Part shown: positions 10,628-48,418 of the stretch, in pieces
How the letters are laid out: every line of letters starts with the position of its first letter
Numbering within the stretch: the stretch's first letter is position 1
Source of the DNA: a virus
Reading direction: 5' to 3' (one strand)
Length of the DNA stretch: 64,000 nucleotides
Virus record (IMG/VR): IMGVR_UViG_3300045988_106448
Translations under genes and position numbers: made by a program
Notes under the pieces: model-generated
The model's input: the letters and a program-made list of their open reading frames with translations, nothing else
Told to the model about the DNA's origin: nothing
The model's database searches: none

Positions 10628-12727
10628 ATGATAAGATTTAATGAGGATGGGAAGCTGTCGCATAAGCAGCTTGACGCCGTTTTCAACACCACATTCAACG
10701 TCCTGGAGGCTCTCCCTACCAAGGCGTTGAATCAACTGTTGGACGGGTATGGCGGTGATGTCGATGAAATGATGAACGAGATATTTAAGCAAACGAATCA
10801 GGTGCTTAATTTAAACCATACCTTAGAAACCGAACGTCTTCAGTACGTTGATTGTCTTACGGAATCAATGGATGAAACGTTAAAGGTGAAATCTTACAAT
10901 TATTTCAAGACGACCATGCTGCCTTCCTTTAGACAAGGGTGGAGAAATTTAGAGTGGGGTAATATGGTGCAGTTATATCCTAGTAGTGCGTACCTTGCCG
11001 CTCGTTCACATGGAAAGTGTTTTATTGCGGGCACTCCAATTTTAATGGCAGATTTCACGGTTAAGAACGTGGAGGACATTTACCCCGGCATGGAAGTAAT
11101 GGGGATAGATTACACGCCTCGTAAAGTGCTTACCCGACATATAGGTGAGGGGCAAATGTTTAGGGTAGAACAAGAGAATGGCATCCCCTACGTGGTGAAT
11201 TTCTGGCACGTGATGTGTTTGTATGACACCAAGAAGAAAGCGTATGTGGAAATGCCGATGAACGAGTTTTATAAATACCCGGTAAAGAAGCAGCGTCGTT
11301 TTCAGGGGTATCGGGTATTTAGTCCGGACACACCAATCTTTGAAAAGAGTGATATTAGAGTGACTTGCATTGGTAGGGATTCTTATTACGGTTTCATGAC
11401 AGATGGTGATCATTTGTTCCAATTAGAAGATGGAACAGTGGTGCATAATTCTTACGAGTTTTGTTACGCCTTTCCATTGTGGAGGCTGTACACCTACAAA
11501 CGCCCCACGTTCATGAGGGCGGACACTCCCGATAATAAGAATCGTCAAGAAACTTGTATTATTACTAATACGGAAAAGTTGGGTAAGGAGCATATTGATA
11601 AAATTGCGGAGGAAATTAAAATTAATGATGCTCTAGGCTATCGTATTAACCCGAACGGAAAGGCGTCACTTGCTGCCACGGGTATAGAGGGGGAGAACGG
11701 TACGAAATTGCACTTGCGTGGAAAGGATGGGTTTATTCGTGGTTTGCACGTGGGGGCGGCGGTGAGCGATGACTTACCTGACGAATCCAGTATATACAGT
11801 TTGGAACAGCGTGAGAAATTGATTGATTTGTTCAACGGTACGATTTCACCTATTGTTGAGCCATACGGGTATAATCTTGTGGATGGAACCCCGTATCAAG
11901 AGAATGACCTTTACGCTAAGCTGAAAGAAGACCCCAAGTTTAAAGTATTCGAATACCCGGCAGTCTTTCCTGATGGACGTTTGCTCGCTCCCGACCGTTT
12001 CACGTTTAAGAAATTGATGGAGGAAAAACAATCATTGGGAACTATGGTGTTTAGCCGTGAGTATTTGGTTGTGCCAATCAGTGACGATAGTACGATATTC
12101 CCGTGGGAAATTCTTATGCGTAGCACGTATGGAATGGAAAAGTATATGTTAGTGAATAACATAGAATCTTTTCCTATTAAACTAGCCAAAGTAGTGATTG
12201 GGTGCGACTTTGCTGTTTCCGGTAACGTGGGGGCGGATTACACTTGTTATTCCGTTTGGGGTAAAGATTTGCTAGGGAATTATTATCTCCTATATATTTA
12301 TCGTGAAAAGGGGCTTTCTCATAACGAACAGTTGAATAAAATAATGCAGCTAGACCGTAGCTTTAAACCAAGCGAAATCGTAGTAGAAAATAACGGTTTC
12401 CAAAGCATACTTGCGGATATGGCACGTCAACAGGGTATTAGAAATATTACACCATTTACCACCACAGCCGGAAATAAGAAAGACTTACGTACTGGGTGGG
12501 TGTCGTTGGCAGCGTTGTTCGAGCGTGGGGCGATAAAATGCCCGTGGCATACCGATAGCCGTAAACAGGTCGAGCAAATGTTCGGGGAATTCAATAGTAT
12601 TGCATTTCGTCCGGACAAGGGAACGCTAGAAAGTATTAGCGGGCATGATGATACTGTGTCATCGGCGTTTATGGCTATTAACAAGTTGAGAGAGGGAACT
12701 ATTAGAGTAGTAGTAGATTCAATTTAA
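10628..12727 (+). CDS. terminase large subunit, interrupted by a mini-intein in Walker A
   Basis: Walker A is AARSHGK|S, split by the intein. The C-terminal RNaseH-like nuclease motifs are present (VIGCDFAVSGNVGADYTCYSV, GHDDTVSSAFMAI). Confidence 0.7.
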   Translation: MIRFNEDGKLSHKQLDAVFNTTFNVLEALPTKALNQLLDGYGGDVDEMMNEIFKQTNQVLNLNHTLETERLQYVDCLTESMDETLKVKSYNYFKTTMLPSFRQGWRNLEWGNMVQLYPSSAYLAARSHGKCFIAGTPILMADFTVKNVEDIYPGMEVMGIDYTPRKVLTRHIGEGQMFRVEQENGIPYVVNFWHVMCLYDTKKKAYVEMPMNEFYKYPVKKQRRFQGYRVFSPDTPIFEKSDIRVTCIGRDSYYGFMTDGDHLFQLEDGTVVHNSYEFCYAFPLWRLYTYKRPTFMRADTPDNKNRQETCIITNTEKLGKEHIDKIAEEIKINDALGYRINPNGKASLAATGIEGENGTKLHLRGKDGFIRGLHVGAAVSDDLPDESSIYSLEQREKLIDLFNGTISPIVEPYGYNLVDGTPYQENDLYAKLKEDPKFKVFEYPAVFPDGRLLAPDRFTFKKLMEEKQSLGTMVFSREYLVVPISDDSTIFPWEILMRSTYGMEKYMLVNNIESFPIKLAKVVIGCDFAVSGNVGADYTCYSVWGKDLLGNYYLLYIYREKGLSHNEQLNKIMQLDRSFKPSEIVVENNGFQSILADMARQQGIRNITPFTTTAGNKKDLRTGWVSLAALFERGAIKCPWHTDSRKQVEQMFGEFNSIAFRPDKGTLESISGHDDTVSSAFMAINKLREGTIRVVVDSI
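11018..11449 (+). mobile_element. mini-intein (Hint domain, 144 aa, no homing endonuclease domain) within the TerL P-loop
   Basis: Block A: CFIAGTPILMADF. Block B: VLTRH. Blocks F/G: GFMTDGDHLFQLEDGTVVHN, followed by the +1 Ser. Removing it restores Walker A as AARSHGKS. Confidence 0.65.
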
Positions 12728-15360: not shown

Positions 15361-15831
15361 ATGGAAAACGAATATCGTATTAGTCACGAACAGTTCCTAA
15401 TTAATCTTCAGTTAGAGTACCTAACTCATAGATTAAGATCATTGATTTACCGAACAGCGTCTTACGCTCAGGTGGCGGCAGATATAGCATCTAAGAAAAG
15501 ATCGAAGATAGAGGATTTGGGAAAGAAATTTGGGATACGGACAATCTTTAGTCCGGGCTTTGACGTATTAGGGTTTGTAAACTTATATTTCTGGTCGGGG
15601 CGGGGTTTACCGCACTTCCAATATAAGGATGAGGAACAAAGAAGAGTACAAGGTAATTATGACAAATGGTATATTTTGTTTCGTGGAACACGAGTGAAAT
15701 ATAAAGGCAGGAGAACCGAAGTTGTTTCGAATAATCCTGTCCGGAAAGAGGTAATCGTCAAGACTCTTTCTGGCAATCAATTGGCGAAATATAGTGAATT
15801 AACAATTAAAAAAGATTTCGAATGGATTTGA
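15361..15831 (+). CDS. hypothetical protein
   Basis: 156-aa ORF. No motif recognised. Confidence 0.3.
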   Translation: MENEYRISHEQFLINLQLEYLTHRLRSLIYRTASYAQVAADIASKKRSKIEDLGKKFGIRTIFSPGFDVLGFVNLYFWSGRGLPHFQYKDEEQRRVQGNYDKWYILFRGTRVKYKGRRTEVVSNNPVRKEVIVKTLSGNQLAKYSELTIKKDFEWI

Positions 15832-16076
15832 AAATTGTAAACCACAGTACACATGAATTGCCCGTGTACAAGACAAAAGATTCGGCAGGAGCCGATTTAA
15901 GAGCGTTCTTACCTGAAGAGAAAGTTATTTACCTGCAACCGGGGGAACGTCGATTAATCCCTACTGGATTACACATGGCTATTCCGGAGGGGATGGTAGG
16001 ATTTATTTGCCCTCGTAGCGGTATGGCGGTAAAACAAGGTTTGACCGTTATTAACGCTCCGGGAGTAATAGACGCT
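15822..16076 (+). CDS. dut: dUTPase, exon 1 (N-terminal motifs I-III)
   Basis: SAGADLRA, IPTGL and CPRSGMAVKQGLTVINAPGVID match dUTPase motifs. The frame runs into a stop 7 codons after the conserved GVID. Exon boundary is approximate (+/- 3 nt). Confidence 0.7.
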
Positions 16077-16946
16077 AAACTTTTAATGACTGCCTAAGAT
16101 GTATCAAAGGTTCTTTATATTAATTTTGGTAACTTTGCATTCAAATAATAATGCTATGGGGAAATTTGATAGAGAACCAAATTGTCAATGTCCAATTTGT
16201 GGAATTAAAATGTGGGTTAAACCTTCTTCTTTAAGAAAGGCGAAACATGGGGTTTGTTGTTCTATGGAATGTTCTAGGAAATTACGTTCAAATTTTATGA
16301 CAGGTGTAGGGAATCATCAGTTTGGGTTGACAGGAAATTTGAATAGTTCCTTTAAACATAATGAGAAAATAAATTCGGCAGGTTATGTTATGGAAAATGT
16401 TCCTGGACACCCTAAAGGTGGAAAAATTCGAGAAAGGTCTAAAACAACTTATATTTTGAAACATAGATTAATTATTGAAAGAAATTGTGAAAAGTTTCCT
16501 CAAGAATTATTTGAAAATATAGGGGGTTGGATAGTTTTAAAAGATTGTTATGATGTTCACCATATAAATGAAGACAGAACTGACAATCGGTTAGAAAATC
16601 TTGAAATTTTAACTCGAGGTAAACATACTGCAATCCACAATTTAGAAAAGACAATTATAAGAGATGATACTACGGGTAGAATAATTGGTGTCTTTAAACG
16701 AGGTGAATTGCTGGGAAGTCCAGAGGTGGATAATCAGCAGCCAAGCATTAGTAGTAATACTTTTGAAGGTTCAACGACTAACAGCCGAATCCAAACAGAT
16801 AATGCTGAGGATAGTAATGCTGACACGAGTGCCTCGCCCCTATTTATAGGGTGAAGATATAGTCTGAACTTTGCAAATAACCTAAAAGTAAAGCAAAGAA
16901 ATAATAGGATAAAGAGCCTATTAGTGTAACAACTCCACATAAATTG
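16077..16946 (+). mobile_element. putative group I intron carrying an HNH homing endonuclease ORF, inserted in dUTPase
   Basis: The ~870-nt insertion sits exactly between dUTPase motif III (GVIDA) and motif IV (DYRGDVGV). Exon 1 ends in T and the last intron nucleotide is G, as in group I introns. The insert is AT-rich relative to its flanks. Confidence 0.55.
16099..16854 (+). CDS. HNH homing endonuclease (HNH_3-type), intron-encoded
   Basis: 251 aa. Cys-rich N-terminal part, then DVHHINEDRTDNRLENLEILTRGKHTAIHN (HNH motif). Confidence 0.65.
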   Translation: MYQRFFILILVTLHSNNNAMGKFDREPNCQCPICGIKMWVKPSSLRKAKHGVCCSMECSRKLRSNFMTGVGNHQFGLTGNLNSSFKHNEKINSAGYVMENVPGHPKGGKIRERSKTTYILKHRLIIERNCEKFPQELFENIGGWIVLKDCYDVHHINEDRTDNRLENLEILTRGKHTAIHNLEKTIIRDDTTGRIIGVFKRGELLGSPEVDNQQPSISSNTFEGSTTNSRIQTDNAEDSNADTSASPLFIG

Positions 16947-17141
16947 GATTACCGTGGAGACGTGGGTGTGCCTCTAATTAATTTGGGACAGGACGTTGAG
17001 AAAATTGAAGATGGCGACCGTGTGGCACAAATTGTTTTCGTGCCATTCGTGCAGGCGAATTTTCAGGTGGTAGCAACCGAAGCTGATCTTGGAGAAACTG
17101 AACGTGGTCAAGGAGGATTTGGACATACCGGGAAGAATTGA
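16947..17141 (+). CDS. dut: dUTPase, exon 2 (motifs IV-V)
   Basis: DYRGDVGVPLINLG, DRVAQIVFVP and the C-terminal RGQGGFGHTGKN arm motif. The tracked ORF starts at TTG 16944 only because the frame happens to be open there. Confidence 0.7.
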   Translation, partial: DYRGDVGVPLINLGQDVEKIEDGDRVAQIVFVPFVQANFQVVATEADLGETERGQGGFGHTGKN

Positions 17142-17238: not shown

Positions 17239-17943
17239 ATGGCAAACGCATTAGCAACTAGAGTAAAATTCCGTAAGTATTCGGCAGAGCAACTTCAGAA
17301 CGTTATCAACAATGAGGAATCAAACGAAGTAGAAATTCAGGTAGCGACAGAGTTATTGGAAAAGATGGGTGGAGCACCCGCACCCAAAGAAGCCCCGGTA
17401 GCCCCCGCAAAGAAAGAGGCTCCGAAGGTAAAGAAAGCCCCGGCTCCTAAAAAGGAAGAACCGAAAGCTGAGAAAGAAGACAAGGCTGAAAAGGAGTTAC
17501 CCGCTGACAAGTCACCGGAAGCGGCTGCAAAACGTCAGAACAAAAAGACAACGGAATACGTTTCGGATGAACAATTGACTCCGGCAGAACAAGCCCGCTT
17601 AGACAAGGCTGAAAAGGAGTTTGATGAACGCCAGAAAAACCGGAAAACCCCTTCCAAGTCTGACAAAACGATGAAGGAGAAGGCTCCTAAGACTGAAAGA
17701 GCAACCAAGCGTGAAAATCTTGAGGAATCAAACGAAGTACCGGGCTTGAAGGTTGGTAGCCAAGTAACCTTGAAAGAAGGTTCCGAGGTAGGTACGATTA
17801 CCCGTGTATATCTATCTTCGGATGGTAAAGAGAAATGTATGGTGAAGTTTGGTGATGCCAAACCAATCAAGAAGCGTGTGACGGCTGTGGAACTCGCAGA
17901 AGAAGCTAAACCGAAAGCCGCCCCGAAAAAAGCTAAGAAATAG
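17239..17943 (+). CDS. Lys/Ala/Pro-rich histone H1-like DNA-binding protein
   Basis: 234 aa. Long low-complexity AP/KK/E tracts (APKEAPVAPAKKEAPKVKKAPAPKKEEPKAEK) and a basic C-terminal tail (KPKAAPKKAKK). Confidence 0.4.
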   Translation: MANALATRVKFRKYSAEQLQNVINNEESNEVEIQVATELLEKMGGAPAPKEAPVAPAKKEAPKVKKAPAPKKEEPKAEKEDKAEKELPADKSPEAAAKRQNKKTTEYVSDEQLTPAEQARLDKAEKEFDERQKNRKTPSKSDKTMKEKAPKTERATKRENLEESNEVPGLKVGSQVTLKEGSEVGTITRVYLSSDGKEKCMVKFGDAKPIKKRVTAVELAEEAKPKAAPKKAKK

Positions 17944-18674
17944 TGAGCCCCACTATATATCTAGTCAAAGGTATTTCAGGAAGTGGCAAATCAACAAGGG
18001 TTTACCTATTCTTGGAATACCTTGAATCATTAGGGCTAGAATTGACACCCTTTAAATTTAAAACACTTGACGGAAAAGAAAAGGAAGTAGGAGTTTATTG
18101 TGAGGATTTGGATTTGATTTTCGTTGGGAAGTGGTACGAAAATGGCGGTGTACGCCGTTGGCAGGGGCACGACAGTATGACGGGGCGGTTATGTCATTCT
18201 GAAGGGCTTAGCTACTTCCTAAAGAGTGTTGCACAAAAGGGTCACAGTGTTGTTTTGGATGGTGCGGGTACGACGGCAACATGGCGGCTTAGACCCAAAT
18301 TCCTATTTGAGGACAACGGGTTTAAGAGTATTGTTCATATACGGTATGATTACAAGCCGGAGCAGTTGCAAGAATATTATGACCGGATCGAATACCGTTC
18401 TGGCGAGCCTCCCAAGGGGGATAGTATGTGGCGTAAAAGTAAAACCTTCCTACATGACTATCAAAAGGCTGTAGAAGAGGCTAAGATGGTTGTATCGGCA
18501 GGTTGCCACGTGTCTTTACATGATGAACCATACGATACCCCGGTTTACGATTTGGGTGTTAGAATTTTGGAGCACGTGGGTTTGGAAGACGTGCAAGATG
18601 AGTTCATCGCTTATTGTCAAAATTCAGATTATCTAATTAAAAACTCCTTTAATGAATTCCAGAAAATAAAATGA
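17943..18674 (+). CDS. P-loop kinase (AAA_33 / polynucleotide- or nucleotide-kinase-like)
   Basis: Walker A LVKGISGSGKST near the N-terminus, 243 aa. Candidate nucleotide or DNA kinase. Confidence 0.45.
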   Translation: MSPTIYLVKGISGSGKSTRVYLFLEYLESLGLELTPFKFKTLDGKEKEVGVYCEDLDLIFVGKWYENGGVRRWQGHDSMTGRLCHSEGLSYFLKSVAQKGHSVVLDGAGTTATWRLRPKFLFEDNGFKSIVHIRYDYKPEQLQEYYDRIEYRSGEPPKGDSMWRKSKTFLHDYQKAVEEAKMVVSAGCHVSLHDEPYDTPVYDLGVRILEHVGLEDVQDEFIAYCQNSDYLIKNSFNEFQKIK

Positions 18675-19459
18675 AATTTCGAGGGCGTATATATTGTATA
18701 GAATGTACTGTAAATCATAAGTGGTATATTGGTCAAACTTCTAGAAGTTTACAAGTTCGGATGAATGGGCATATCAAGTTAGCTCTGAGGGGAGGGGAAT
18801 TTGCTTTAAGTCGTGCTATACGAAAATACGGCGTTGAAAACTTTGTAATCGAGGAAATCATGTGGGTTGAGGCTCCTAATAAACATTCTCTAAAACAGAA
18901 ACTCGATTTTCTGGAACGCCATTTTATAGCCCGTTACGACACGAAACATACGGGCTATAATATGACGGAAGGAGGAGAAGGTGTATTAGGAATTCAATTT
19001 GATGAAGAGTCTAGAATAAAAATGTCTGAATCTGCTAAAAATAGATGCGATGAAAATTTTAGAAGAAGACAATCTATTGTTGCTAAACGTTTATGGCAAA
19101 AGGAATCTTTTCAAAAGTTAAGGTCAGAAGCCGCCCATTTGAATTTATTAAATAAAGAAGTTCAGAAAAAGATGGGTTTGGCTCGCCGAGGATTAAAGTT
19201 TACTGAAGAGCATAAGAAGAAAATAGGTTTAGCCGTAAGCGGGGAAAGGAATGGTATGTATGGGAAAAGCCACCCAAAAGAATTTATTGAAAAATTTACT
19301 AAGAAAGTTTATCAATATACTCCAGAGGGGGTTTTAGTGAAAGAATGGTTTTCTATTATTGATATTAAAAGAGAATTGAAAATAGGCAGAAAATGTTTAA
19401 AGAAAGCTATTGCAAATCAATTTATTTATCATGGTTATATTTGGAAATTTAAAAGATGA
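18671..19459 (+). CDS. GIY-YIG homing endonuclease with NUMOD3-like repeats (free-standing)
   Basis: GIYCIEC...KWYIGQTSRSL.R...H gives the GIY-YIG motif. Repeated EEHKKKIGLAVSG / RNGMYGKSH NUMOD-like DNA-binding modules. AT-rich relative to flanks. Confidence 0.7.
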   Translation: MKFRGRIYCIECTVNHKWYIGQTSRSLQVRMNGHIKLALRGGEFALSRAIRKYGVENFVIEEIMWVEAPNKHSLKQKLDFLERHFIARYDTKHTGYNMTEGGEGVLGIQFDEESRIKMSESAKNRCDENFRRRQSIVAKRLWQKESFQKLRSEAAHLNLLNKEVQKKMGLARRGLKFTEEHKKKIGLAVSGERNGMYGKSHPKEFIEKFTKKVYQYTPEGVLVKEWFSIIDIKRELKIGRKCLKKAIANQFIYHGYIWKFKR

Positions 19460-20454
19460 AAAAGAATAAAATTATTCCAGTCCCTAACGAAAATTTTCAA
19501 TATTATTTGTATTGGATTACTAAAAGAATGGAAATTTTTTGGAACAAATACGAGGGTAAACCCGCCCCATGGACGGACGATCCTATATTACAAAAATATA
19601 AATTTTGTAATACGTACAGGTGCCTCGACAGAGTTAGTCAGTACCTGTTGAGCCACGTGATTTACAACGGTAAGGATTACGAACCGGAAGATATGTTTTA
19701 CCGCATATTGTTGTTCAAACATTTTAACAAGATAGAAACATGGGAAGCGATTGAAAAAGAATTAGGGGATATTACCCTTAATGTGGAATTAGAAGACATT
19801 GCCAAATGTCTTGATGATATGGTAAAACGAGGCATTACCATTTATGGAAGTGCTTATATTATTAATTGTTGTTTCTACCAATTACCGGAGTATTCCTACA
19901 TGAAGGGGATGTCTAAACACCGGGCACACTTTAGCGTGTTTCAACGTGAAATTTTTGACAACGGGCATATTTATGACTTCCTAGACGCACAGTCATTAGA
20001 GGAGTTGTTTTGGGTATTCCGTAAGATGAAAATATACGGGGACTTTACGGCACAACAATACGCCATTGACATGAATTACAGCCCTCTGTTTGACTTTAAC
20101 GAAAATGATTTTGTTATAACCGGACCGGGTTCAATTCGAGGAATTGAGAGGACTTTTCAGAATGCCCGTGGGTGTGATTACGTGGGTGTGATGAAATGGG
20201 TTCTTGCCCATTTTACGGAGTTGATGTATGAACAAGAAAAGGAGAAAGGTTTCACATTTCGTCCACTTCCTAATCGTATGCCCACGTTGATAGACTTGCA
20301 AAATTGCTTCTGTGAAACGGATAAATATTTGCGGGGTGCCGGGGTTGAAACAGAAGGATTAAAAGTGAAAGGCGAGCGGATTAAACACACTTACGAGGCG
20401 AACCGTAATAAAATTAAATACACGTTGCCACCTAAGTGGAATGTGAAACTTTAA
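19456..20454 (+). CDS. hypothetical protein (332 aa) in the nucleotide-modification neighbourhood
   Basis: No motif I can assign by eye. Translationally coupled to the downstream ThyA-fold gene. Confidence 0.3.
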   Translation: MKKNKIIPVPNENFQYYLYWITKRMEIFWNKYEGKPAPWTDDPILQKYKFCNTYRCLDRVSQYLLSHVIYNGKDYEPEDMFYRILLFKHFNKIETWEAIEKELGDITLNVELEDIAKCLDDMVKRGITIYGSAYIINCCFYQLPEYSYMKGMSKHRAHFSVFQREIFDNGHIYDFLDAQSLEELFWVFRKMKIYGDFTAQQYAIDMNYSPLFDFNENDFVITGPGSIRGIERTFQNARGCDYVGVMKWVLAHFTELMYEQEKEKGFTFRPLPNRMPTLIDLQNCFCETDKYLRGAGVETEGLKVKGERIKHTYEANRNKIKYTLPPKWNVKL

Positions 20455-21521
20455 TTTCAAGAACCATGTTTTTACAAGCTGAAAATTTAAACGAGGCATT
20501 TATTTGCCTTTGTCAAGAACTATTTTATCACGGCGAAGACGTGACCCGGCGTGGCTTTAAATGCCGGGAAATTCCTCGAGCGGTGTTAGTGGAAATTACC
20601 AATCCAGTAGACCGTTATGTGCGTGTGCCAGAGCGCAAATGGAATAAGGTGTTGGGGTGGGTTGAATCCCTATGGATCGCTCGTGGGGATAATGCTTTAG
20701 AAATGCCTGCTGCCTATGTTAAGAACCTGAAGAATTTCAGTGATGACGGCATACACATGAGAGCCGGGTACGGTCCGAGATTCAGACATTATGGGGATAA
20801 CGGGGAATTTAAACCATTGTTTAATCTTCCTATTTCAACAGGATTTCCCGTTGACCAACTTAGATTTGTCATTGAAAAATTTAAGGAGGACATTGACACA
20901 CGGGAAGCGGTGGTTACTATTCATGACCCTGTAATGGACGATTTCGGTCCCGTAGATAACAGTGGGGTGGCTCCTGTTTTACGAACAAAGGACACTCCAT
21001 GCACCCGGTCAATTCATTTCATGATTGTGAACGGTGCGATGAATTGCTACGTTGACATTCGGAGTAATGATGTTGTATGGGGCTTTAGTGCCGTGAACGT
21101 GTTTAACTTTACGTTAATGCAGGAATACGTCGCCGCTCTGGTAGGCGTGCCCGTGGGTAAGTATTACCACAAGGCTGATAACTTGCACGTGTATGAAAAC
21201 TTCTTACCGTTGGTGGAGGAGATTGCCAAGAAGTACACGGGTAACGAATACCCTTCTGGAACCCGGTTCGCTTACAAACCCTCCTACAAAACTCTTCAAG
21301 AGTTTGATGCTTACATAGGTAAACTCAGCACCTTCGAAGAATTGTGTAGAGGGAAGAAAGTTCCGGCAGAAGAATTGGAAGTGATACTTAGAACCTTTAC
21401 CGATGACTTATTTAACGATTGGGCTAAAGTGTTCTTCACCTACTGGACTAAACACCCGGTAGAGTTTACCAATCCGTTGTTAAACGAAATATTTTGTTTT
21501 GATGAATTACGAGAAAATTGA
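20436..21521 (+). CDS. thymidylate synthase-fold enzyme (ThyA or dUMP hydroxymethylase-like)
   Basis: Aligns to the ThyA core: PCTRSIHFMIV..NCYVDIRSNDVVWGFSAVNVFNFTLM....ADNLHVYEN against PCHAFFQFYV...[25 protein letters not shown]...GDTHLYSNH. The catalytic Cys and the uracil-specifying Asn are conserved. The protein is about 100 aa longer than ThyA. Confidence 0.65.
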   Translation: MECETLISRTMFLQAENLNEAFICLCQELFYHGEDVTRRGFKCREIPRAVLVEITNPVDRYVRVPERKWNKVLGWVESLWIARGDNALEMPAAYVKNLKNFSDDGIHMRAGYGPRFRHYGDNGEFKPLFNLPISTGFPVDQLRFVIEKFKEDIDTREAVVTIHDPVMDDFGPVDNSGVAPVLRTKDTPCTRSIHFMIVNGAMNCYVDIRSNDVVWGFSAVNVFNFTLMQEYVAALVGVPVGKYYHKADNLHVYENFLPLVEEIAKKYTGNEYPSGTRFAYKPSYKTLQEFDAYIGKLSTFEELCRGKKVPAEELEVILRTFTDDLFNDWAKVFFTYWTKHPVEFTNPLLNEIFCFDELREN

Positions 21522-22041
21522 CATCCTATTAGGGATGAAGGATATCCAAAGGCTACCAAATACCCCCCACCACCGGGGGTATAACCTTTTGGAACATGGT
21601 TTGGTAGTTGGAATGTTATTCCGGTGGTTCGCTTCAGAAGAGAACGTGGCGTACGACATTAACGTGTTTGACAAGGTTCTCCTACATGATTTCGTTGAAA
21701 GCGTCACGGGGGATTTAAACGCTTGTGTTAAGAAGTTTAACGATAAGACAGCCAAGGCGTGGGACATTATTGAATTTGAAATATGCCACGGCAACCCGGT
21801 ACTCGCCCCCTATTCTGATCAGGAAATAAAGAAAGCCATGACGGATCAGCAATATCGTCTATTTAAAATGTGCGATTATCTTGATTTGTGGATTTTCTGC
21901 CGGAACGAAATGGCGTTGGGAAACCGAGCGCAAAAGTTGGTTAAATGTTTGTCTAACTGCGAAAAGCTATTGGCTCACTATTCTCATGAATGGGCTGAGT
22001 TTAAAAGCATCGCTAAATTCATGAAACAATATGAAGGGTAA
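21499..22041 (+). CDS. HD-domain 5'-deoxynucleotidase (YfbR-like)
   Basis: H..EH....LLHDFVESVTGDL....D arrangement, typical of YfbR-type HD phosphohydrolases. Confidence 0.55.
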   Translation: MMNYEKIDILLGMKDIQRLPNTPHHRGYNLLEHGLVVGMLFRWFASEENVAYDINVFDKVLLHDFVESVTGDLNACVKKFNDKTAKAWDIIEFEICHGNPVLAPYSDQEIKKAMTDQQYRLFKMCDYLDLWIFCRNEMALGNRAQKLVKCLSNCEKLLAHYSHEWAEFKSIAKFMKQYEG

Positions 22042-22711
22042 AGTTATTGGGTTGGTAGGTGTAATTGGTAGTGGAAAAAGCTATACTTTAAAACGTCTTA
22101 AAGAGGAGGCTTCCAACACCTCCAGATTATTTATAGAAGGTGACTTTAGTGAAGGTATTCGTCAATTTATCATGAACATTTACGTGGGTAATGACGTGCC
22201 GATAGATGTGAATGGTGGAGCGTATGCCAAATGGAAGGCACATCCTAATGAAATTGCGTTACCCGTGTTTAGAGATGATGCCGGGAATTTATCATGCGGT
22301 ACGATTACCGGGCGCAAACTACTTCAACGGGTTGGAGAGTACATGAAGGCGATGGCAGGTAATGACGTTTGGGCTAAGTGGACGAAGACAGACGTTATGC
22401 GGGCATATAACAAGGCTTGTCTGATTTACCCCACGGCTAAGATTGAAGAAATGACAATTACTTTCGGGTCGGTGCGTTTCTTATGTGAAGCCCAAGTGGT
22501 TTTTGACGTGGCAACCCTTACCGATAAAGAACCCGTGATTATCTTTTGCAACCACAAGTCAGATTCCTACGAGTTGAATGATCACGTTAGTGAAGCATTT
22601 GCTCGGCACTTTGTTGATTTGGGTTACAAGGACGGTCAAGACATTACCGCCGAGGTACGTAGATTATTATTAAATTCAGAAAAGGATGAAAGATTTTCTA
22701 GCATATCTTGA
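22031..22711 (+). CDS. P-loop nucleotide kinase-like protein
   Basis: N-terminal Walker A VIGLVGVIGSGKSYT, 226 aa. Size and context suggest a dNMP/nucleotide kinase. Confidence 0.45.
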   Translation: MKGKVIGLVGVIGSGKSYTLKRLKEEASNTSRLFIEGDFSEGIRQFIMNIYVGNDVPIDVNGGAYAKWKAHPNEIALPVFRDDAGNLSCGTITGRKLLQRVGEYMKAMAGNDVWAKWTKTDVMRAYNKACLIYPTAKIEEMTITFGSVRFLCEAQVVFDVATLTDKEPVIIFCNHKSDSYELNDHVSEAFARHFVDLGYKDGQDITAEVRRLLLNSEKDERFSSIS

Positions 22712-25700
22712 GAGAAATTTAATGGATTATACCCTGATATCAGATTACGTTGTTGATATCGGGGGTAAGACATTCGAGTTATACAAGCCCGCTCATGATG
22801 GAGCGTTATTCGATGACGACTTTAATTTCGTGGGGATTCCCGCTAATCCTGACCGGGCTTCGGTAGAGGAATCGTCTACGGAAACTGAATGTGATTTTTA
22901 CGCTTACCGTTTCGGTGGGGTGTGGTATATGCTACCACGAGGAAAAGAGAACGAGGTAAAATTGATTCGGTTAAAATACGTGGGTGCGGCACTTCAGGAA
23001 GTTCCTACACGGGTATTTCTGGGGGTGCATGGTCAGTACGAAATGATGTCCGGGTCAGGCACGTATAAAGAATGGTGCCAGAAGGCGAAGTTTTTAGGGG
23101 TTCACACGTTAGGTATCTGTGAGAAAAACAGTTTAGCCGGGGCGTTAAAATTCCAAACGGAATGTATCGCTGCCGGGTTAAAGAGCGTGATTGGAATGGA
23201 GTGCAGCGTGTATGATGAACCAAACGATTATGCTTTCACGGCTAAGGTGTACGCTCGCAATGAAAAGGGATGGAAGGACTTGTTGACAATAAACAAGTTT
23301 ATAAATTGTGACAATCCTAAATATATAGGAGTTGCCGACTTTCGGAATATTACTCGTGGCAATAATGATCTTGTGGTATTTTTAGACCCCAAGGCGTTGG
23401 ACTATGACAAGATTGGAATGTTGGGTATTGCGGGGATTACCAATTTATACCAATTAGACCCGGCTATATACACCGCCGAAAAGCGTGACGAGTGGTACTT
23501 GAAGAATCTTAAAAAGTTCTTTCATGACAAGTCGCTGACAGCCGTGGCGGCTATTGATGCGTGGTATTTGGATGAAGAATACAGTTGTATTCGACCTCGG
23601 TTACACAGCATGGGGAACACGATAGCCTATGCAAGTGAGAATCAGTATTTCAAATCAAACGATGAATACTTGTTAGAATTGTCAGAGTTATTCCCTAAAA
23701 CTGATGAAGGGTTCGAAATGGCGTATAACAAATTCATGGATGCGATAGACGTGTTGGAAAACGTTGCCGAGGCGATTACCTTTACCATAGACGTCAAGAA
23801 ACGCCACTTACCCCACTACAAAATGACAAAGGAGGAGGCGGCAGAGTTTGACAACAATGAGGATCTCTTTTGGTCTCTTATAGACAAGGGGCTTGAGGCT
23901 CATCCTGACTTAATTGAGGATTGGGGTGAAGAGGTTATTATGGAGCGTATTGAGAGGGAAGTGGGGGTTATAAAGCTAGGTGAAGCGATTGATTACTTTT
24001 TAATCACGTGGGACATTATCAATTGGTGCCACCGTAACGGTATCATGACGGGGATTAGTCGTGGGAGTGCCGGAGGTTGTTTGGTATCATATCTGTTGGG
24101 TATTACCAAACTTGATCCCATGCGGTATGACTTACTGTTCGAGCGTTTCTTGAATGCGGGTCGTGTGAAGGTTTCCCTACCTGATATTGACTGTGATTAC
24201 CCCGGTGAAGACCGTCCTCGTGTAAAGAAGTACATGGAGGAACGTTACGGGTGGAAACAGGTGTGTTCGGTAGGAACGTACAGTGCTCTACAATTACGTG
24301 CGGCTCTTAAAGCCTTGTCACGGGTGTACGGTTTGCAATTCAAGGACGTTAACGACATGATGAAGTTGTTTGACGTGAAAGACCGTAAGCCGGAAGACCT
24401 GTTTAAGATAGCGTGTGCCCACCCCGTTGTTAAACACTTTGTCAAGGAACACCCGGATTTGATTAACGAAGCGATGCTCGTGATGCCCGCACCGTTGGCG
24501 CAGTCTATTCATGCTTGCGCCATGATGGTATTCCCAGATGAAAACGATATGTTTAGATGGGTGCCTATTCGTAAACAGGGGGACGAGTACGTTACCGAAT
24601 GGGAAGGTGGTGAGATGGATGCAGCCGGGTTCTTGAAAGAAGACGTGCTAGGGGTGAAACAGTTTGACAAGTTTCAGGACATGGTACGTTTGATTAAAGA
24701 ACATGAAGGTGTAGACCTTGATATTTTTAGCGTGCCGTTGGATGACCCTGAAGTGTACGCCTATTTCCAAAATGGGTGGAATGAAGATAACTTCCACTTC
24801 GGCAGTAACGGGCTAACCGGGTATTGCAAGCAAATGAAGCCTGAAAATATAGAGGACTTGATTGCGGCTATATCCCTGTACCGCCCCGGTGCGATGGAGA
24901 ACAACTTCCATAATGAATACGTGTTGCGTAAGGAGGGCACTAACAAGGTAGAGTATTTCGTTGGTACGAAAGATATTCTTAAGAATACGTATGGAGTGTT
25001 CGCTTATCAGGAACAGATCATGCAGTTATGCCGAGAGTTAGGAGGGTTGTCATTGGTGGAAGCAGATGACGTGCGTAAAGCGATGGTGAAGAAGAAGTAC
25101 GAGGCGTTACAGCAATACAAGGAAAGATTTATTCCCTATTACCGGGATAACTACGGCGTTAGCCAAGAATACAGCGAGAAGGTGTGGGATGCCATTGACA
25201 AGGCTTCAACGTACTTGTTTAACCGTAGCCACGCCGCCGCCTATGCCATTACCGGATACATTTCCCAATGGATTAAGGTGCATTATCCGATAGAGTATTG
25301 GTCGGTAGCGTTTAAATACGCCCAAGACTTTGATTACCCCCGGTACATTGCGGAAATTAATAAGACGGGGGTCTGCACGGTGCGTCCTGTGGATATTAAC
25401 TTGTCGGCGTTGGATGTTACCATTAACTTTAAAGAAAAGGCTCTGTATTGGTCTATAACCGGAATAAAACAAGTAGCGGAAAAAGCCGCAACCCAAATTT
25501 TAAAAGAGCGTGAAGAGAATGGTGATTACTATTCGTTGGATGATTTCGTGGTTCGGCATAAATGGAAGGGTTCGGCGGTTAATAGCCGTATCATACGAAA
25601 CCTAATTTTAGCGGGGGCGTTTGACAAGTTGGAAAACGTGCAGGAACCTTCAGATCGTATTGATTTGTTGATTAATTTCTTAGGTTCTACTAATACCGAA

Positions 25701-26171
25701 ATTAAAGATGATGACCCGGTACTTGAAGGGGCTGACAAGCACATGGGAGATGCGTGGTGGTGGGCACTCATGCAAAAGAAAGTGTCCGGGTTGGCATTCT
25801 TTGATTATCGTGGCATTTACGAACGATACGGTGGGGGACAATTCCCGCCCGAGTACGTGTATTCTGAAATAGAGGAGTGTCAAGGTGAAACCCTTCCTAA
25901 CGGTAATCAGGTTATTGTAGCCGGGTTCGTTACGGAGTTTGAACTTAAGAAGACACGTAAGGGCGAAATGATGTGTAAAATACTGTTGGAAAATAATTAT
26001 GACTTCCTAGAAGTTATGGTATTCCAATCAGAGTTTGAAACATTAAGGGACTACCTGACCGGGCGTGGGGACATCATCATGCTGAATGGCTCGATAGCGT
26101 ATGATAAACGCAAGGAAGTAAACATTTTAAGGGCGAATTTCGAAACGAATATCGTCACTTTAACGTTATAA
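22686..26171 (+). CDS. dnaE: DNA polymerase III alpha subunit (DnaE-type, PHP domain)
   Basis: N-terminal PHP domain (FLGVHGQYEMMSGSGTY...HTLGICEKNSLAGALKFQ....LKSVIGMEC). Pol III alpha palm/fingers motif NRSHAAAYAITGYISQWIKVHYP. 1161 aa. Confidence 0.8.
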   Translation: MKDFLAYLERNLMDYTLISDYVVDIGGKTFELYKPAHDGALFDDDFNFVGIPANPDRASVEESSTETECDFYAYRFGGVWYMLPRGKENEVKLIRLKYVGAALQEVPTRVFLGVHGQYEMMSGSGTYKEWCQKAKFLGVHTLGICEKNSLAGALKFQTECIAAGLKSVIGMECSVYDEPNDYAFTAKVYARNEKGWKDLLTINKFINCDNPKYIGVADFRNITRGNNDLVVFLDPKALDYDKIGMLGIAGITNLYQLDPAIYTAEKRDEWYLKNLKKFFHDKSLTAVAAIDAWYLDEEYSCIRPRLHSMGNTIAYASENQYFKSNDEYLLELSELFPKTDEGFEMAYNKFMDAIDVLENVAEAITFTIDVKKRHLPHYKMTKEEAAEFDNNEDLFWSLIDKGLEAHPDLIEDWGEEVIMERIEREVGVIKLGEAIDYFLITWDIINWCHRNGIMTGISRGSAGGCLVSYLLGITKLDPMRYDLLFERFLNAGRVKVSLPDIDCDYPGEDRPRVKKYMEERYGWKQVCSVGTYSALQLRAALKALSRVYGLQFKDVNDMMKLFDVKDRKPEDLFKIACAHPVVKHFVKEHPDLINEAMLVMPAPLAQSIHACAMMVFPDENDMFRWVPIRKQGDEYVTEWEGGEMDAAGFLKEDVLGVKQFDKFQDMVRLIKEHEGVDLDIFSVPLDDPEVYAYFQNGWNEDNFHFGSNGLTGYCKQMKPENIEDLIAAISLYRPGAMENNFHNEYVLRKEGTNKVEYFVGTKDILKNTYGVFAYQEQIMQLCRELGGLSLVEADDVRKAMVKKKYEALQQYKERFIPYYRDNYGVSQEYSEKVWDAIDKASTYLFNRSHAAAYAITGYISQWIKVHYPIEYWSVAFKYAQDFDYPRYIAEINKTGVCTVRPVDINLSALDVTINFKEKALYWSITGIKQVAEKAATQILKEREENGDYYSLDDFVVRHKWKGSAVNSRIIRNLILAGAFDKLENVQEPSDRIDLLINFLGSTNTEIKDDDPVLEGADKHMGDAWWWALMQKKVSGLAFFDYRGIYERYGGGQFPPEYVYSEIEECQGETLPNGNQVIVAGFVTEFELKKTRKGEMMCKILLENNYDFLEVMVFQSEFETLRDYLTGRGDIIMLNGSIAYDKRKEVNILRANFETNIVTLTL

Positions 26172-33056: not shown

Positions 33057-33397
33057 AGTACGTGTTAATGTGTAGAAATCAAATGTGTGCAGTATGTGAC
33101 ATTCCGGTGGAAACGCCACCGTACAAGATGAAGTACGACAAACGTAAGGGTAAAATGGTTCCCTACCTTGACACGCTTGAGGTATGTTCTATTTGCGGTG
33201 AGCCCTTGCGTTTTATGGAGGAGGAAACAACTATTCCGGAGTTTGGTGTAAATGGCTTTAAGAGCCTACCAGACGACAAAAAACGTGAGATATTACGTAA
33301 ACGGTTTGACAAGGATATGCGGACGGGCGGTAGCGAAGAGAAAGAGATGCGTAAAAGAAGTGCAATGAATAAATTTTTAGGAAGAGATGGGAATTAA
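33053..33397 (+). CDS. hypothetical Zn-ribbon protein
   Basis: 114 aa. CxxC...CxxC arrangement (CAVCD...CSICG). Confidence 0.3.
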   Translation: MKYVLMCRNQMCAVCDIPVETPPYKMKYDKRKGKMVPYLDTLEVCSICGEPLRFMEEETTIPEFGVNGFKSLPDDKKREILRKRFDKDMRTGGSEEKEMRKRSAMNKFLGRDGN

Positions 33398-34106
33398 AGT
33401 TTTAAGCCTTTTTGATGGCATTTCATGTGGTATGCTCGCGCTTCAACGGGCAGGAATAGAAGTTGATACTTATTATGCTAGCGAAATAGATGAATATGCT
33501 TTAAAAATTAGCCAACATCATTTTCCAGAAATTATTCAATTGGGTAATGTTGAAGAGTGGCAGAATTGGAATATTCCATGGGGTGAAATAGATTTATTGT
33601 TAGGAGGAAGTCCATGTCAAGGGTTTTCTAAAGTGGGTTTAGAGTTAAATTTTAATGATCCTCGTAGTAAATTAGTATTTGAATTTGCTGATATATTGGA
33701 TCATATTAAGCAGTACAATCCTCATGTTTTATTTTTATTAGAAAACGTTAAAATGAGGGAAGAATGGGCTGATATTATTTCCCAATTAGTTGGGGAAACT
33801 TATGAAGTTTACAATTCGGCTTTAGTATCTGCCCAAAACAGAGTAAGATATTATTGGTTTAATTGGGAATCTGCCACAGTACAAGATAGAAAAATTTGCC
33901 TGAAAGATATAATTCCGGATGCAGCTAGAAATAAAGCCAGAACAGTTCGTGTGAAAGGGGATGGGGTGAAATGGGGTGATAAACATGAATGGGATAGAGC
34001 CAACCCCGATAGAAAATACACGATGGAAGAATTAGAAATGTTGCAAACACTTCCTATTAAATACACCGATGTAGGAGGGGGCATGGTAAACGTCGTAAGG
34101 CAATAG
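33387..34106 (+). CDS. DNA (cytosine-5)-methyltransferase, frameshifted near C-terminus
   Basis: Motif I LFDGISCG, motif IV GGSPCQGFS, motif VI LLENV, motif VIII QNRVRYYW. The conserved motif X (AIGNCWTVDMIVEIFKMI) is in a different frame (34088..34156) after an A3 homopolymer. AT-rich gene. Confidence 0.65.
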   Translation: MGIKVLSLFDGISCGMLALQRAGIEVDTYYASEIDEYALKISQHHFPEIIQLGNVEEWQNWNIPWGEIDLLLGGSPCQGFSKVGLELNFNDPRSKLVFEFADILDHIKQYNPHVLFLLENVKMREEWADIISQLVGETYEVYNSALVSAQNRVRYYWFNWESATVQDRKICLKDIIPDAARNKARTVRVKGDGVKWGDKHEWDRANPDRKYTMEELEMLQTLPIKYTDVGGGMVNVVRQ

Positions 34107-43413: not shown

Positions 43414-45027
43414 ATGGACATTAAAGTATTATTTGACGATTCAGCCCGTGAAGGCTTGTATGAAGGGGTGAAACAAATTACCCGTGCCGTGGCTTCTACA
43501 CTCGGACCGAAAGGACACACGGTTATCATTGATAAAGGTTATGGCATTCCCCACGTGACCAAAGACGGGGTAACGGTGGCTCGTGCCTTTGATACGGATG
43601 ACACCGTGGCTCGCATGGGTGCAACCCTCGTTAAGATGGCAGCCGCTAAAACGTGTGACGAAGCCGGAGACGGTACCACTACCGCCACCATTCTTACGGA
43701 AGCTCTCATACGGTTAGGGATGGAAAAGATGCACCTCGTGAAAAATCCACAACAATTTAAACGAGGAATTGAACGTGCTTGTGAAGAGGCGGTAGCCTTC
43801 ATTGACAATTTGAAATATGAAATCGATCCTACGGATTTTACCCGGTTAGAACAAATTGCTACCATTTCAGCGAATGGAGACGTGGAGATAGGAAAGGTAA
43901 TTACCGGGGCTATTCAACAAGTGGGCAACGATGGGATCATCACCGTGGAAGAAGGTGATAACTCTTCTGAGATAACGGTTGATATCACGACAGGATTCCA
44001 ATGGTCAAAGGGGCTTGTCAATCCCTATTTCGTAACCGATCGAGAACGTATTGAATGCGTGTTAGACAATCCATACGTTCTAATACTAGGGCAGAAAGCC
44101 AATTACCCGCAAGAAATTCTTCCGGTGGTTCAAACCGTGTACACCGCTAAACGTAGTTTACTTATTGTCGCTCCAGACGCCTCTAACGACGTCATAAAGT
44201 TCCTCGTAACGAACATTGCCAAGGAAAACGGGTTAAAGGCTTGCTTCGTTAAAGCCCCCGGCTATGGACAGGTTCAGAAGGATATGTTGGAAGACCTAGC
44301 CGTGAAGATGGGCGGTAAGGTGGTTGGAGGGGAATCCGCTCAAACCATTGAACAACTAGGTACAGATTGGTTAGGTGAATGTGATAGAGCGGTTGTCACC
44401 TCTACTCAAACCACCCTAGTTGGAGGGGCGGGTACCGAAGAGGAAATTCAAACCCGTGTCAAGGCTATCAAGAACCAGATTGATGACACCTCTAACACCT
44501 TTGATAAAGAGAAGTACCGTGAACGCATTAGCAAGTTAACCGGGGGAGCCGCCGTGATACACGTTGGAGCCACTAGCGAGGTTGAGATGAAGGAACGCAA
44601 AGACCGAGTAGACGATGCCATAGCCGCCACACGTGCAGCCATTGACGAGGGCTACGTGCCGGGTGGAGGTATGATGCCATATCAGGCAGCACAATATCTA
44701 ACGGGTTGGACAACCAATACCACGGAGGATGAACGTGTGGGAATTGAAGTGGTAATCGGGGCTTTACGTGCACCTTTCCGTCAATTGTGCATGAATGCCG
44801 GGGTAAACCCTGATAAATACGAAGCGGTAATAGAAACCAAAATCGGAAGTGAGTGGCGCAAGGGGATTGACTTTTCTTCCATGTGCATCGTGAATTTGTT
44901 TGAGATTGGGGTAATTGACCCCGTTAAGGTTACACGCCTTGCGTTGCAGAACGCCGTGAGCGTTGCCATACAGTTCCTAAATACTTCGTGTGTTATGGCT
45001 GAGCCGCCTAAAGACAAGAAGTCATGA
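43414..45027 (+). CDS. groEL: GroEL-type chaperonin (Cpn60)
   Basis: 537 aa, collinear with GroEL: ASTLGPKGHTVIID, DGVTVARAF, AGDGTTTATILTEALI, the apical domain, then a C-terminal hydrophobic tail. Confidence 0.9.
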   Translation: MDIKVLFDDSAREGLYEGVKQITRAVASTLGPKGHTVIIDKGYGIPHVTKDGVTVARAFDTDDTVARMGATLVKMAAAKTCDEAGDGTTTATILTEALIRLGMEKMHLVKNPQQFKRGIERACEEAVAFIDNLKYEIDPTDFTRLEQIATISANGDVEIGKVITGAIQQVGNDGIITVEEGDNSSEITVDITTGFQWSKGLVNPYFVTDRERIECVLDNPYVLILGQKANYPQEILPVVQTVYTAKRSLLIVAPDASNDVIKFLVTNIAKENGLKACFVKAPGYGQVQKDMLEDLAVKMGGKVVGGESAQTIEQLGTDWLGECDRAVVTSTQTTLVGGAGTEEEIQTRVKAIKNQIDDTSNTFDKEKYRERISKLTGGAAVIHVGATSEVEMKERKDRVDDAIAATRAAIDEGYVPGGGMMPYQAAQYLTGWTTNTTEDERVGIEVVIGALRAPFRQLCMNAGVNPDKYEAVIETKIGSEWRKGIDFSSMCIVNLFEIGVIDPVKVTRLALQNAVSVAIQFLNTSCVMAEPPKDKKS

Positions 45028-47762: not shown

Positions 47763-47788
47763 AGGGGGCGAAAGCCCCCTCTTTTGTT
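47763..47788. terminator. bidirectional rho-independent terminator (agggggc-gaaa-gccccct flanked by T-runs on both strands)
   Basis: 7-bp GC-rich stem. CTTTTGTT follows on the + strand and TTTATTCTTC on the - strand. Sits between the convergent 46257..47762 (+) and dps (-) genes. Confidence 0.65.
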
Positions 47789-48275: not shown

Positions 48276-48418
48276 AATTAAAATGATTAGATTGTTTATA
48301 AACAAATAATATACGGTAATGACAAAATAAAGTTTGTAACCTTGTAACAAAATATTTTCACCCCACGTATTAGTATTGTGTTTATCACATAATAGTTTTA
48401 GGGTTTATTGTTTGTCAT

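Follow-up and report, generated by a model that had tools for sequence, protein, structure and literature searches.

A cluster of genes at 17943-22711 in a 64,000-nucleotide stretch of phage DNA (the window, taken from the IMG/VR virus record IMGVR_UViG_3300045988_106448) probably encodes the nucleotide and DNA part of a pathway for thymidine replacement or hypermodification based on 5-hydroxymethyl-deoxyuridine (5-hmdU), this being the best explanation of the cluster as a whole on the sequence evidence set out below. SPO1, SP10 and M6-type phages use 5-hmdU for replication, produced by a homologue of ThyA, and the pathways of thymidine hypermodification are known from a few phages of Proteobacteria and Bacillus. 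In such systems the 5-hmdU comes either from a ThyA-homologous dUMP hydroxymethylase or from a TET/JBP dioxygenase (Iyer 2013; Lee 2018, 2021). The predicted pathway is of this known kind, newly placed in an uncultured lineage, and its distinctive feature would be a minimal make-up, with a ThyA-like homologue as the predicted source of 5-hmdU and a 5-hmdU DNA kinase both found by homology but neither an amino acid/amine:DNA transferase (AADT) nor tailoring enzymes. An initial annotation of the window had put forward thymidine hypermodification as the role of the cluster, and this reading is supported at the level of gene families, both by the family matches and by gene order shared with M6 and SP10; all the open reading frames (ORFs) that it named were recovered, each with a significant Pfam or PHROG match, as were the class II ribonucleotide reductase, the DnaE polymerase and the C5 cytosine methyltransferase that it placed nearby. 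Four of the window genes share PHROGs with phages whose hypermodified thymidines have been determined experimentally (M6, SP10 and ViI).

The gene at 17943..18674 (+ strand) encodes a P-loop protein (GISGSGKST) which, by family assignment, is a member of the HMUD2 type of 5-hmdU DNA kinases. Its match to PF18747 (“5-hmdU DNA kinase 2”; 1.9e-24) scored 86.8 bits against a cut-off of 25, and it falls into phrog_4409 (1.4e-22), to which the ViI kinase gp243 itself belongs (6.7e-174); BLASTP aligned it with ViI gp243 over its full length (residues 5-228, 24% identity, E 6e-21). Matches from tblastn were to proteins annotated as “P-loop nucleotide kinase2” in Ackermannviridae, while a PDB sequence search gave nothing useful. 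ViI gp243, M6 gp54 and the kinase domain of SP10 gp186 each add one phosphate to 5-hmdU in DNA (PMC8989533). The earlier suggestion that this ORF is a 5-hmdU DNA kinase is thus upheld by PF18747 and by the gp243 match, and the alternative of a dNMP or dephospho-CoA kinase fails.

The 361-residue protein encoded at 20436..21521 (+ strand) has the ThyA fold (PF00303, 1.4e-17) and is a predicted pyrimidine hydroxymethylase, most likely acting on dUMP, judging from homology and context. It shares phrog_5131 (7.7e-61) with M6 gp58 (E 3e-31) and SP10 gp188, the latter being annotated as a dUMP hydroxymethylase in AB605730, and its best phage matches were SP10 gp188, SPO1 gp29 (34% identity, E 7e-34) and M6-like and ViI-like proteins, some of them annotated as dUMP hydroxymethylases and a ViI-like one as “deoxyuridylate hydroxymethyltransferase”. 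Among PDB entries, the CMP hydroxymethylase MilA was matched at 3.8e-20, compared to about 5e-8 for thymidylate synthase (TS). Pro-Cys189 and Arg-Ser-Asn-Asp209-212 align with the catalytic motifs of TS, and Asn221 aligns with the Asn with which TS reads uracil, where the cytosine-specific MilA has Asp; the catalytic Cys and the uracil-specifying Asn ascribed to this protein in the initial annotation are therefore both present, and its proposal that this is not an ordinary TS agrees with the MilA score, the shared PHROG and the phage matches, all of which group the protein with hydroxymethylases. A C-terminal extension of about 95 residues does not align with the M6-type extension and resembles that of the ThyA-like neighbours in bacteria (see below).

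The 332-residue protein encoded at 19456..20454 (+ strand) had been regarded as an orphan, but it belongs to a named family, PF18723 (1.2e-79; profile positions 3-275 of 281 matched with 268.1 bits, the cut-off being 25), and shares phrog_2396 with M6 gp55 (E 5e-18) and with the C-terminal domain of SP10 gp186. Pfam calls this family “HMUDK_hel” (“5-hmdU DNA kinase, helical domain”), a name most likely explained by the fusion of kinase and PF18723 in SP10; it was formerly aGPT-Pplase clade 1, and the older name, aGPT-pyrophosphorylase clade 1, is still used in one matched phage annotation. The protein has the all-helical, HhH glycosylase-like fold and the conserved C-E-x-x-K-Y motif of the family, and its fold is closest to that of the AADTs. 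The initial idea of an aGPT-Pplase-type transferase therefore holds as far as membership of clade 1 and an AADT-like fold are concerned, but the protein does not belong to the proven transferase family PF18724: there was no PF18724 match, BLASTP against M6 gp51 was not significant and a profile-profile comparison found no similarity (hhalign probability 0.5%), so that identification as a proven transferase was rejected. A PDB sequence search gave nothing useful. In an alignment of M6 gp55, the C-terminal part of SP10 gp186, metagenomic phages and bacteria, 21 positions are invariant, including D42, N52, R55, D58, K154, D205, a G-x-G...G stretch and, in the last long helix, C286-E287-x-x-K290. 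In AADTs the essential Cys is preceded at -4 by a Glu that is likewise essential, in a helix at a similar position (...EVETVLCKWK... in M6 gp51), and PF18723 members have Glu or Gln at -4 from the Cys; this resemblance of motifs suggests a covalent Cys chemistry.

The YfbR-like HD 5'-deoxynucleotidase of the initial annotation (21499..22041, + strand) was recovered by PF12917 (7.4e-15) and phrog_6047 (7.2e-13), a PHROG to which M6 gp59 belongs (2.1e-91); 19 of its 20 tblastn phage matches were to Pseudomonas or Bordetella phages, those listed being M6/YuA-like, and it is predicted to deplete dTMP or dTTP. The small P-loop kinase encoded at 22031..22711 (+ strand) has a nucleoside monophosphate (NMP) kinase fold, with a match to phrog_139 (“dNMP kinase”, 2.8e-9) over residues 1-127 only. 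An AlphaFold2 model of it (pLDDT 93.2) retrieved by Foldseek only generic APS-, TMP- and PSTK-type kinases (E 1e-4 to 1e-2), a profile search of the PDB retrieved only gluconate kinase (5.6e-4), and a PDB sequence search gave nothing useful; it did not match PF18747 or PF18748, nor was there a tblastn match among 50,697 phage records. Some of its homologues match PF21448, and the gene is kept at the same position in all relatives. A link to T4 gp1 was sought by tblastn, PDB profile search and Foldseek and was not found. Of the two P-loop kinases initially proposed, that at 17943 is thus in the 5-hmdU DNA kinase family, while that at 22031 is not and has a generic NMP-kinase fold; a role as a 5-hmdUMP/dNMP kinase would fit these results but is not proven by them.

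The core gene order, running from a Lys/Ala-rich protein through the HMUD2 kinase, PF18723, the ThyA-like protein, the HD nucleotidase and the small P-loop kinase to DnaE, is kept in relatives (loci are numbered here with the prefix L) whose PF18723 proteins are 82%, 70%, 64% and about 45% identical to that of the window, with protein identities of 40-99% overall. As the order persists down to some 40-48% protein identity, the cluster is not a chance grouping. A blastn search with the 6-kb region gave no match among the 50,697 phage records; by this search the lineage has no cultured close relative. Other relatives combine the same families differently. In L015:8462-10975 (= L020) a group-1 glycosyltransferase is fused to the N-terminus of PF18723 (837 aa; about 48% PF18723 identity), and no HMUD2 kinase was found by BLAST in L015/L020; in L016:195-1838 an N6/N4 DNA methylase is fused to an HMUD2 kinase. 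Such fusions suggest that this base is also the target of other chemistries. L018 and L019 carry a full set of kinase, amidoligase, GNAT, GATase, AADT and PF18723, and L023 has Nmad2, PF18723 and a radical SAM protein.

Enzymes acting after the kinase were sought by a Pfam scan that took in nearly all ORFs of at least 90 aa on the + strand and, at 47.8-56.5 kb, the larger ones on the - strand. PF18724 was not detected among these window ORFs, and neither were pyridoxal phosphate (PLP), radical-SAM, FAD, acetyltransferase or glycosyltransferase domains; an M6-type AADT profile run against six frames of the window also found nothing. The part of the genome outside the window was covered through a near-identical contig (IMGVR_UViG_3300045988_093070; 113,242 bp, 99% identity over the cluster). 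The scan of its 38 ORFs of at least 150 aa lying outside the window recovered a DUF2400 protein, NUDIX, PNK-phosphatase and structural proteins, and no PF18724. Neither the window nor the remainder of this 113-kb genome yielded a tailoring enzyme (PLP decarboxylase, radical-SAM isomerase, FAD lyase or acetyltransferase); such enzymes are optional in known hypermodification systems. Our own AADT profile was too narrow, as it missed ViI gp247, and the absence of an AADT hence rests on the Pfam model, by which a divergent AADT is picked up in L019, a more distant relative. Proteins of the former aGPT-Pplase clade 2 (now PF18724), namely M6 gp51, ViI gp247 and PhiW-14 gp109, are the amino acid/amine:DNA transferases (PMC8989533). 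With neither PF18724 nor tailoring enzymes, the window would therefore represent a minimal version consisting of kinase and PF18723, as in SP10, these being, as far as is detectable, the only two proteins predicted to act on DNA in this lineage. The DUF2400 protein (261 aa, L046:4847-5632; PF09674, 1.2e-62) lies about 3 kb past the window end in the near-identical contig and had no PHROG, PDB or literature match.

PF18723 is also found in bacteria. When one genome per bacterial species was scanned and the best 80 of at least 477 PF18723 relatives were examined, these were 38-47% identical to the phage protein, some lying in complete Bacteroidales, Paludibacter and Alistipes chromosomes. In 28 of these 80 loci the next gene downstream was ThyA-like, with an overlap as in the phage, 20 had an adjacent radical-SAM/SPASM gene, and 34 had both Nmad2 (called by matching to the Pfam-typed Nmad2 of L023) and a protein of some 160 aa judged TIR-like by eye only; a 5-hmdU DNA kinase was within 6 kb in only one, with an AADT. 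From these counts PF18723 is tied most tightly to its ThyA-like partner and not to the kinase. A module of TIR-like-looking protein, Nmad2, PF18723 and either ThyA-like or radical-SAM/SPASM protein recurs in bacterial chromosomes and MAGs, mostly of Bacteroidales (L082-L161; for example L099:4834-7958, L113:4849-7979 and L087:6001-9347), sometimes with an integrase-like ORF (by eye) adjacent. By its gene families, the same enzyme toolkit is used on the bacterial side too. In the DefensePredictor study (Science 2026; PMC13092281), validated E. coli anti-phage systems newly implicate thymidylate-synthase and 5-hydroxymethyluracil-kinase domains, the legend to Fig. 3 also lists dNMP-kinase and NMAD domains, and systems with an aGPT-Pplase domain are predicted; the bacterial PF18723 module may be related to these nucleotide-modification defence systems.

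In the pathway that we propose for the phage, the dUTPase, whose gene is interrupted by an intron (see below), would supply dUMP, which the ThyA-fold enzyme, using Cys189 and Asn221, would hydroxymethylate to 5-hmdUMP and not methylate to dTMP. The small P-loop kinase and a host NDP kinase would raise 5-hmdUMP to 5-hmdUTP while the HD nucleotidase would remove thymidine nucleotides, and DnaE, which would need to accept 5-hmdUTP, would incorporate 5-hmdU in place of T. The HMUD2 kinase would phosphorylate the hydroxymethyl group in the DNA polymer, giving 5-PmdU. In the most speculative step PF18723 would flip out the modified base, with attack by Cys286 at C6 and loss of the leaving group giving an exocyclic methylene; as the genome shows no PF18724 or tailoring enzyme, this methylene would be resolved without a further enzyme of this kind. 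Hydride would regenerate thymine at kinase-targeted sites, whereas a small nucleophile from the cell would leave a simple adduct not described before, and the final base would be one or the other. The purpose would be to protect replicating and/or packaged phage DNA from host nucleases.

Several findings weigh against this pathway. Transfer of groups onto 5-PmdU has been demonstrated for PF18724 alone, and this family was not detected among the window ORFs scanned or the 38 ORFs from the rest of the genome; PF18723 has no profile-profile similarity to the M6-type AADT, the literature to August 2026 gives it no biochemical activity, and M6 gp55, its member in M6, is dispensable for the M6 intermediate in lysates (PMC8989533). 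No dCMP deaminase was seen, and the protein encoded at 22031 has generic kinase-fold support only. With a 5-hmdU DNA kinase in just one of the 80 bacterial loci, the closest bacterial relatives mostly lack this enzyme within 6 kb, and for this reason the PF18723 family may not need a phosphorylated substrate.

As to what PF18723 does, it may be, tentatively, that it turns (phospho)hydroxymethyl-dU back to thymine in the polymer, so that packaged DNA would be mostly or partly T, possibly a 5-hmdU/T mosaic. M6, SP10, PhiW-14 and ViI convert part of their 5-hmdU to T by an enzyme that is unknown (PMC5889632); M6, SP10 and Ackermannviridae relatives of ViI carry PF18723 when checked, and PhiW-14 and ViI are listed with an aG/PT-PPlase paralogue (Lee 2018 Table 3). 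PF18723 coexists with an AADT in M6 and in the metagenomic L019 and L082 and so is not redundant with it, M6 gp55 is not needed for the hypermodified product (PMC8989533), the AADT intermediate yields thymidine when given a hydride donor, and no other modification enzyme was found in the genome. The argument is, however, wholly one from co-occurrence; no reductant-binding domain is evident in the 332-residue protein, it is hard to see what the phage would gain from returning all the way to T, and the bacterial homologues usually have no kinase nearby. A somewhat more doubtful possibility is that PF18723 is a group transferase that adds an amine, hydroxyl or thiol nucleophile to the thymine methyl by an AADT-independent route, as the family was originally predicted to do (Iyer 2013, as cited in PMC8989533). 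The closeness of its fold to AADT and the invariant Cys-Glu motif would suit such a role, and SP10 makes alpha-glutamylthymidine with PF18723 as its only listed aGPT-Pplase-type domain (Lee 2018 Table 3), although SP10 gp185 (896 aa, no Pfam match) is also a candidate for the SP10 transferase. M6 and ViI virion DNA contains one hypermodified base plus T despite the presence of both PF18724 and PF18723, from which PF18723 adds no second detectable adduct there. We rate thymine formation slightly above a new adduct because phages with both PF18723 and an AADT have one hypermodified base plus T, with the T-forming enzyme unknown (PMC5889632).

It is unlikely that PF18723 is instead without catalytic activity and directs the kinase to its sites as a partner that binds DNA or flips bases, with 5-hmdU and/or 5-PmdU as the final base. 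The fusion to a kinase in SP10 gp186, the Pfam name implying a helical domain of the kinase, the overlapping or abutting kinase and PF18723 genes of relatives without the homing endonuclease described below, and the glycosyltransferase fusion of L015/L020, which looks like a targeting module serving different catalytic partners, would all be in keeping with this; but 21 residues, polar ones included, are invariant from phages to bacteria in a pattern resembling an active site, PF18723 is not needed for activity of the kinases, not even of the isolated SP10 kinase domain (PMC8989533), and a kinase is within 6 kb in only that single bacterial locus. Use of the cassette against competing DNA, in the manner of bacterial anti-phage systems, and not on the phage's own genome, is improbable, since the genes lie inside a replication operon between dUTPase and DnaE in a lytic-type genome, the cassette is kept throughout the lineage together with a thymidine-depleting HD enzyme, and no Nmad2 or TIR-like gene was found in the window. 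What speaks for such a role is the DefensePredictor study already mentioned, in which validated systems newly implicate a thymidylate-synthase domain and a 5-hydroxymethyluracil-kinase domain and aGPT-Pplase systems are predicted (PMC13092281), and the position of the closest cellular PF18723 relatives (39-47% identical) in islands with ThyA-like or radical-SAM, Nmad2-like and TIR-like-looking genes. Ordinary nucleotide metabolism, with the ThyA-like protein as a TS, both P-loop proteins as dNMP kinases and canonical DNA, is very improbable. In its favour, the general Thymidylat_synt family is the only Pfam assignment of the 361-residue protein, and “thymidylate synthase” and “guanylate kinase” are among the labels given by PHROG. 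Against it, the matches of the kinase are to ViI gp243 and to the curated family of 5-hmdU DNA kinase 2, the ThyA-like protein matches a hydroxymethylase 12 orders of magnitude better than any TS, and an HD nucleotidase of the M6 gp59 type would counteract dTMP synthesis. Moreover, PF18723 in the cultured phages examined came from lineages with 5-hmdU-derived thymidine modification, and aG/PT-PPlases are restricted to hypermodifying phages among seven genomes (Lee 2018). The pathway based on 5-hmdU stays the best account of the cluster, while within it a minimal system of HMUD2 kinase and a catalytic, Cys-dependent PF18723 acting on a (phospho)hydroxymethyl base, in its most interesting version making thymine from 5-hmdU in DNA, is put forward only as a possibility.

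Were this last version true, the phage would replicate with one base and package another, and PF18723 with its ThyA-like gene would also underlie widespread bacterial islands. The cluster would in any case extend the pathway to a large uncultured phage lineage with genomes of about 100-113 kb, in the simplest version seen, with kinase and PF18723 and without transferase or tailoring enzymes. PF18723 accompanies the kinase in the M6, SP10 and ViI-like phages checked and is common in bacterial genomes, and a two-protein system free of confounders would offer a clean route to its role and to the conversion of 5-hmdU to thymine. Restriction enzymes may fail to cut the phage DNA, and its sequencing or cloning may give abnormal results.

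Nearly all genes of this phage DNA up to 47.7 kb are on the + strand, and from 17239 to 26171 each gene overlaps or abuts the next, so that they form one operon. It opens with a Lys/Ala/Pro-rich protein of 234 aa with a small C-terminal domain (17239..17943, + strand), which has no Pfam or PHROG family match and whose stop overlaps the kinase start; orthologues are at the same position in L009, L012 and L015, and in all close relatives its translation is coupled to that of the kinase. This protein may serve the pathway by binding DNA. The operon ends with the gene for the DnaE-type replicative polymerase (22686..26171, + strand), which is intact (1161 aa) and whose orthologues in relatives carry PHP, DNA_pol3_alpha and HHH_6 domains. 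Scans for sigma-70 promoters and terminators gave only chance-level results and a tRNA scan found none.

Upstream of the operon is the split dUTPase of the initial annotation, which had been seen as two ORF pieces (15822-16097 and 16944-17141) and for which a cause can now be added, a group I intron at 16077..16946 (+ strand; Rfam RF00028, 58.7 bits against a gathering threshold of 50, E 3.2e-13 at 16647-16888). The limits of the intron were fixed from the uninterrupted allele in the 99% relative L009, blastn against this intron-less allele (L009:7237-7686) setting the end of exon 1 (15822..16076, + strand; Pfam dUTPase 6.8e-10); exon 2 is at 16947..17141 (+ strand; Pfam dUTPase 5.7e-12, profile positions 71-129 of 129). 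Joining 15822-16076 to 16947-17141 restores a 149-aa dUTPase like the uninterrupted one of L009. An HNH homing-endonuclease ORF lies inside the intron (16099-16854; HNH_3 1.2e-7). The intron is not in L009, L006 or L012, where the dUTPase is uninterrupted (148-149 aa), and in L004 and L005 a gap of about 300 nt, with no gene called inside it, separates two dUTPase pieces.

Between the kinase and PF18723 genes there is a free-standing GIY-YIG/NUMOD3 homing endonuclease (18671..19459, + strand; GIY-YIG 5.6e-6, NUMOD3 3.2e-6, phrog_314 4.7e-26), and a GIY-YIG gene is at this place also in L006 (9394-10011) and L009. L004, L005, L010 and L012 have none there, the two genes overlapping or abutting, and a different GIY-YIG gene follows PF18723 in L004 (7625-8479), L005 and L010 but not in L012. 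The notion that the endonuclease had split a single gene into kinase and PF18723 was rejected, as relatives lacking it still have two separate genes. The large terminase (10628-12727, 699 aa) has a Hom_end-associated Hint (intein-type) domain, and the terminase of the 99% relative (L009:780-4142) is 1120 aa, with a larger or additional insertion. The DnaE of L004 (10785-15086) and L005 has an Intein_splicing domain (1433 aa), and that of the 99% relative (L009:13231-17803) is interrupted by a 273-aa ORF. Essential genes of these genomes host many selfish elements.

Elsewhere in the window, the C5 cytosine methyltransferase (33387-34106, 239 aa) matches only the N-terminal half of the Pfam profile (1-157 of 324), and relatives have a similar 229-aa C5 methyltransferase gene elsewhere, beside dUTPase. 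A GroEL-type chaperonin (43414-45027), a ferritin-like protein (47787-48350, - strand), an ECF-type sigma factor (50765-51370) and a crAss001_48-like protein (52153-52527) are also encoded, together with DUF4494, DUF5675 and DUF6549 proteins and Listeria-Bacteroides repeats, and this set of genes suggests a host among the Bacteroidota.

Set beside known systems, the window cluster has the same enzyme families as the bacterial anti-phage and island systems, with PF18723 39-47% identical and the ThyA-like gene overlapping likewise; but these systems are in cellular contexts, in some cases with an integrase-like ORF, have a 5-hmdU DNA kinase in only the one locus of 80, lack adjacent replication genes, and are reported or predicted to act in defence. 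With the SPO1/SP8-type 5-hmdU phages (gp29 dUMP hydroxymethylase) it would share the logic of the steps before replication, with a hydroxymethylase, a nucleotide kinase and a thymidine-nucleotide hydrolase. PaMx11 gp46/PUGT, a 5-PmdU glycinyltransferase of PF18724 (PDB 8Z2M/8Z2N), is only 8% identical to the 332-residue protein, and the AADT motif is E-T-x-x-C-K-W compared to C-E-x-x-K-Y in the window protein. In the Salmonella phage ViI, gp243 is of the same Pfam family and PHROG as the window kinase and has the same P-loop context, although at 304 aa it has a longer C-terminus, and ViI also has an HMUD1-type kinase (gp67), a serine:DNA transferase (gp247) and a PLP enzyme (gp226) scattered in its genome.

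The YuA-like Pseudomonas phage M6, whose product is 5-(2-aminoethyl)-dU, has its genes in a cluster, gp51-gp59 (Lee 2018, Lee 2021), with gp51 (PF18724), gp54 (HMUD1), gp55 (PF18723), gp56 (Nmad5), gp58 (ThyA-like) and gp59 (YfbR-like HD). The order of kinase, PF18723, ThyA-like and HD genes is the same as in the window, and the last three share PHROGs with gp55, gp58 and gp59; the M6 kinase, however, is HMUD1 (PF18748) and that of the window HMUD2 (PF18747), with no BLAST similarity between them, and M6 has a glycine:DNA transferase (gp51), a PLP decarboxylase (gp52), a radical-SAM isomerase (gp53) and Nmad5 (gp56) that were not found in the window phage. In the Bacillus phage SP10, which makes alpha-glutamylthymidine, kinase and PF18723 likewise stand beside a dUMP hydroxymethylase-like protein, gp188, but they are fused in gp186 (637 aa, with an HMUD1 kinase) where the window has two genes, and SP10 has a second kinase, gp218, and the large gp185, called radical SAM in Lee 2018. 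This protein (L002:1652-4342) had no Pfam match at E<=0.001 and is a candidate for the SP10 glutamyl transferase. For SP10, Lee 2018 Table 3 gives no second aGPT-Pplase-type gene, only the PF18723 domain fused to the kinase, and among known systems SP10 is the closest precedent for the AADT-less version predicted here.

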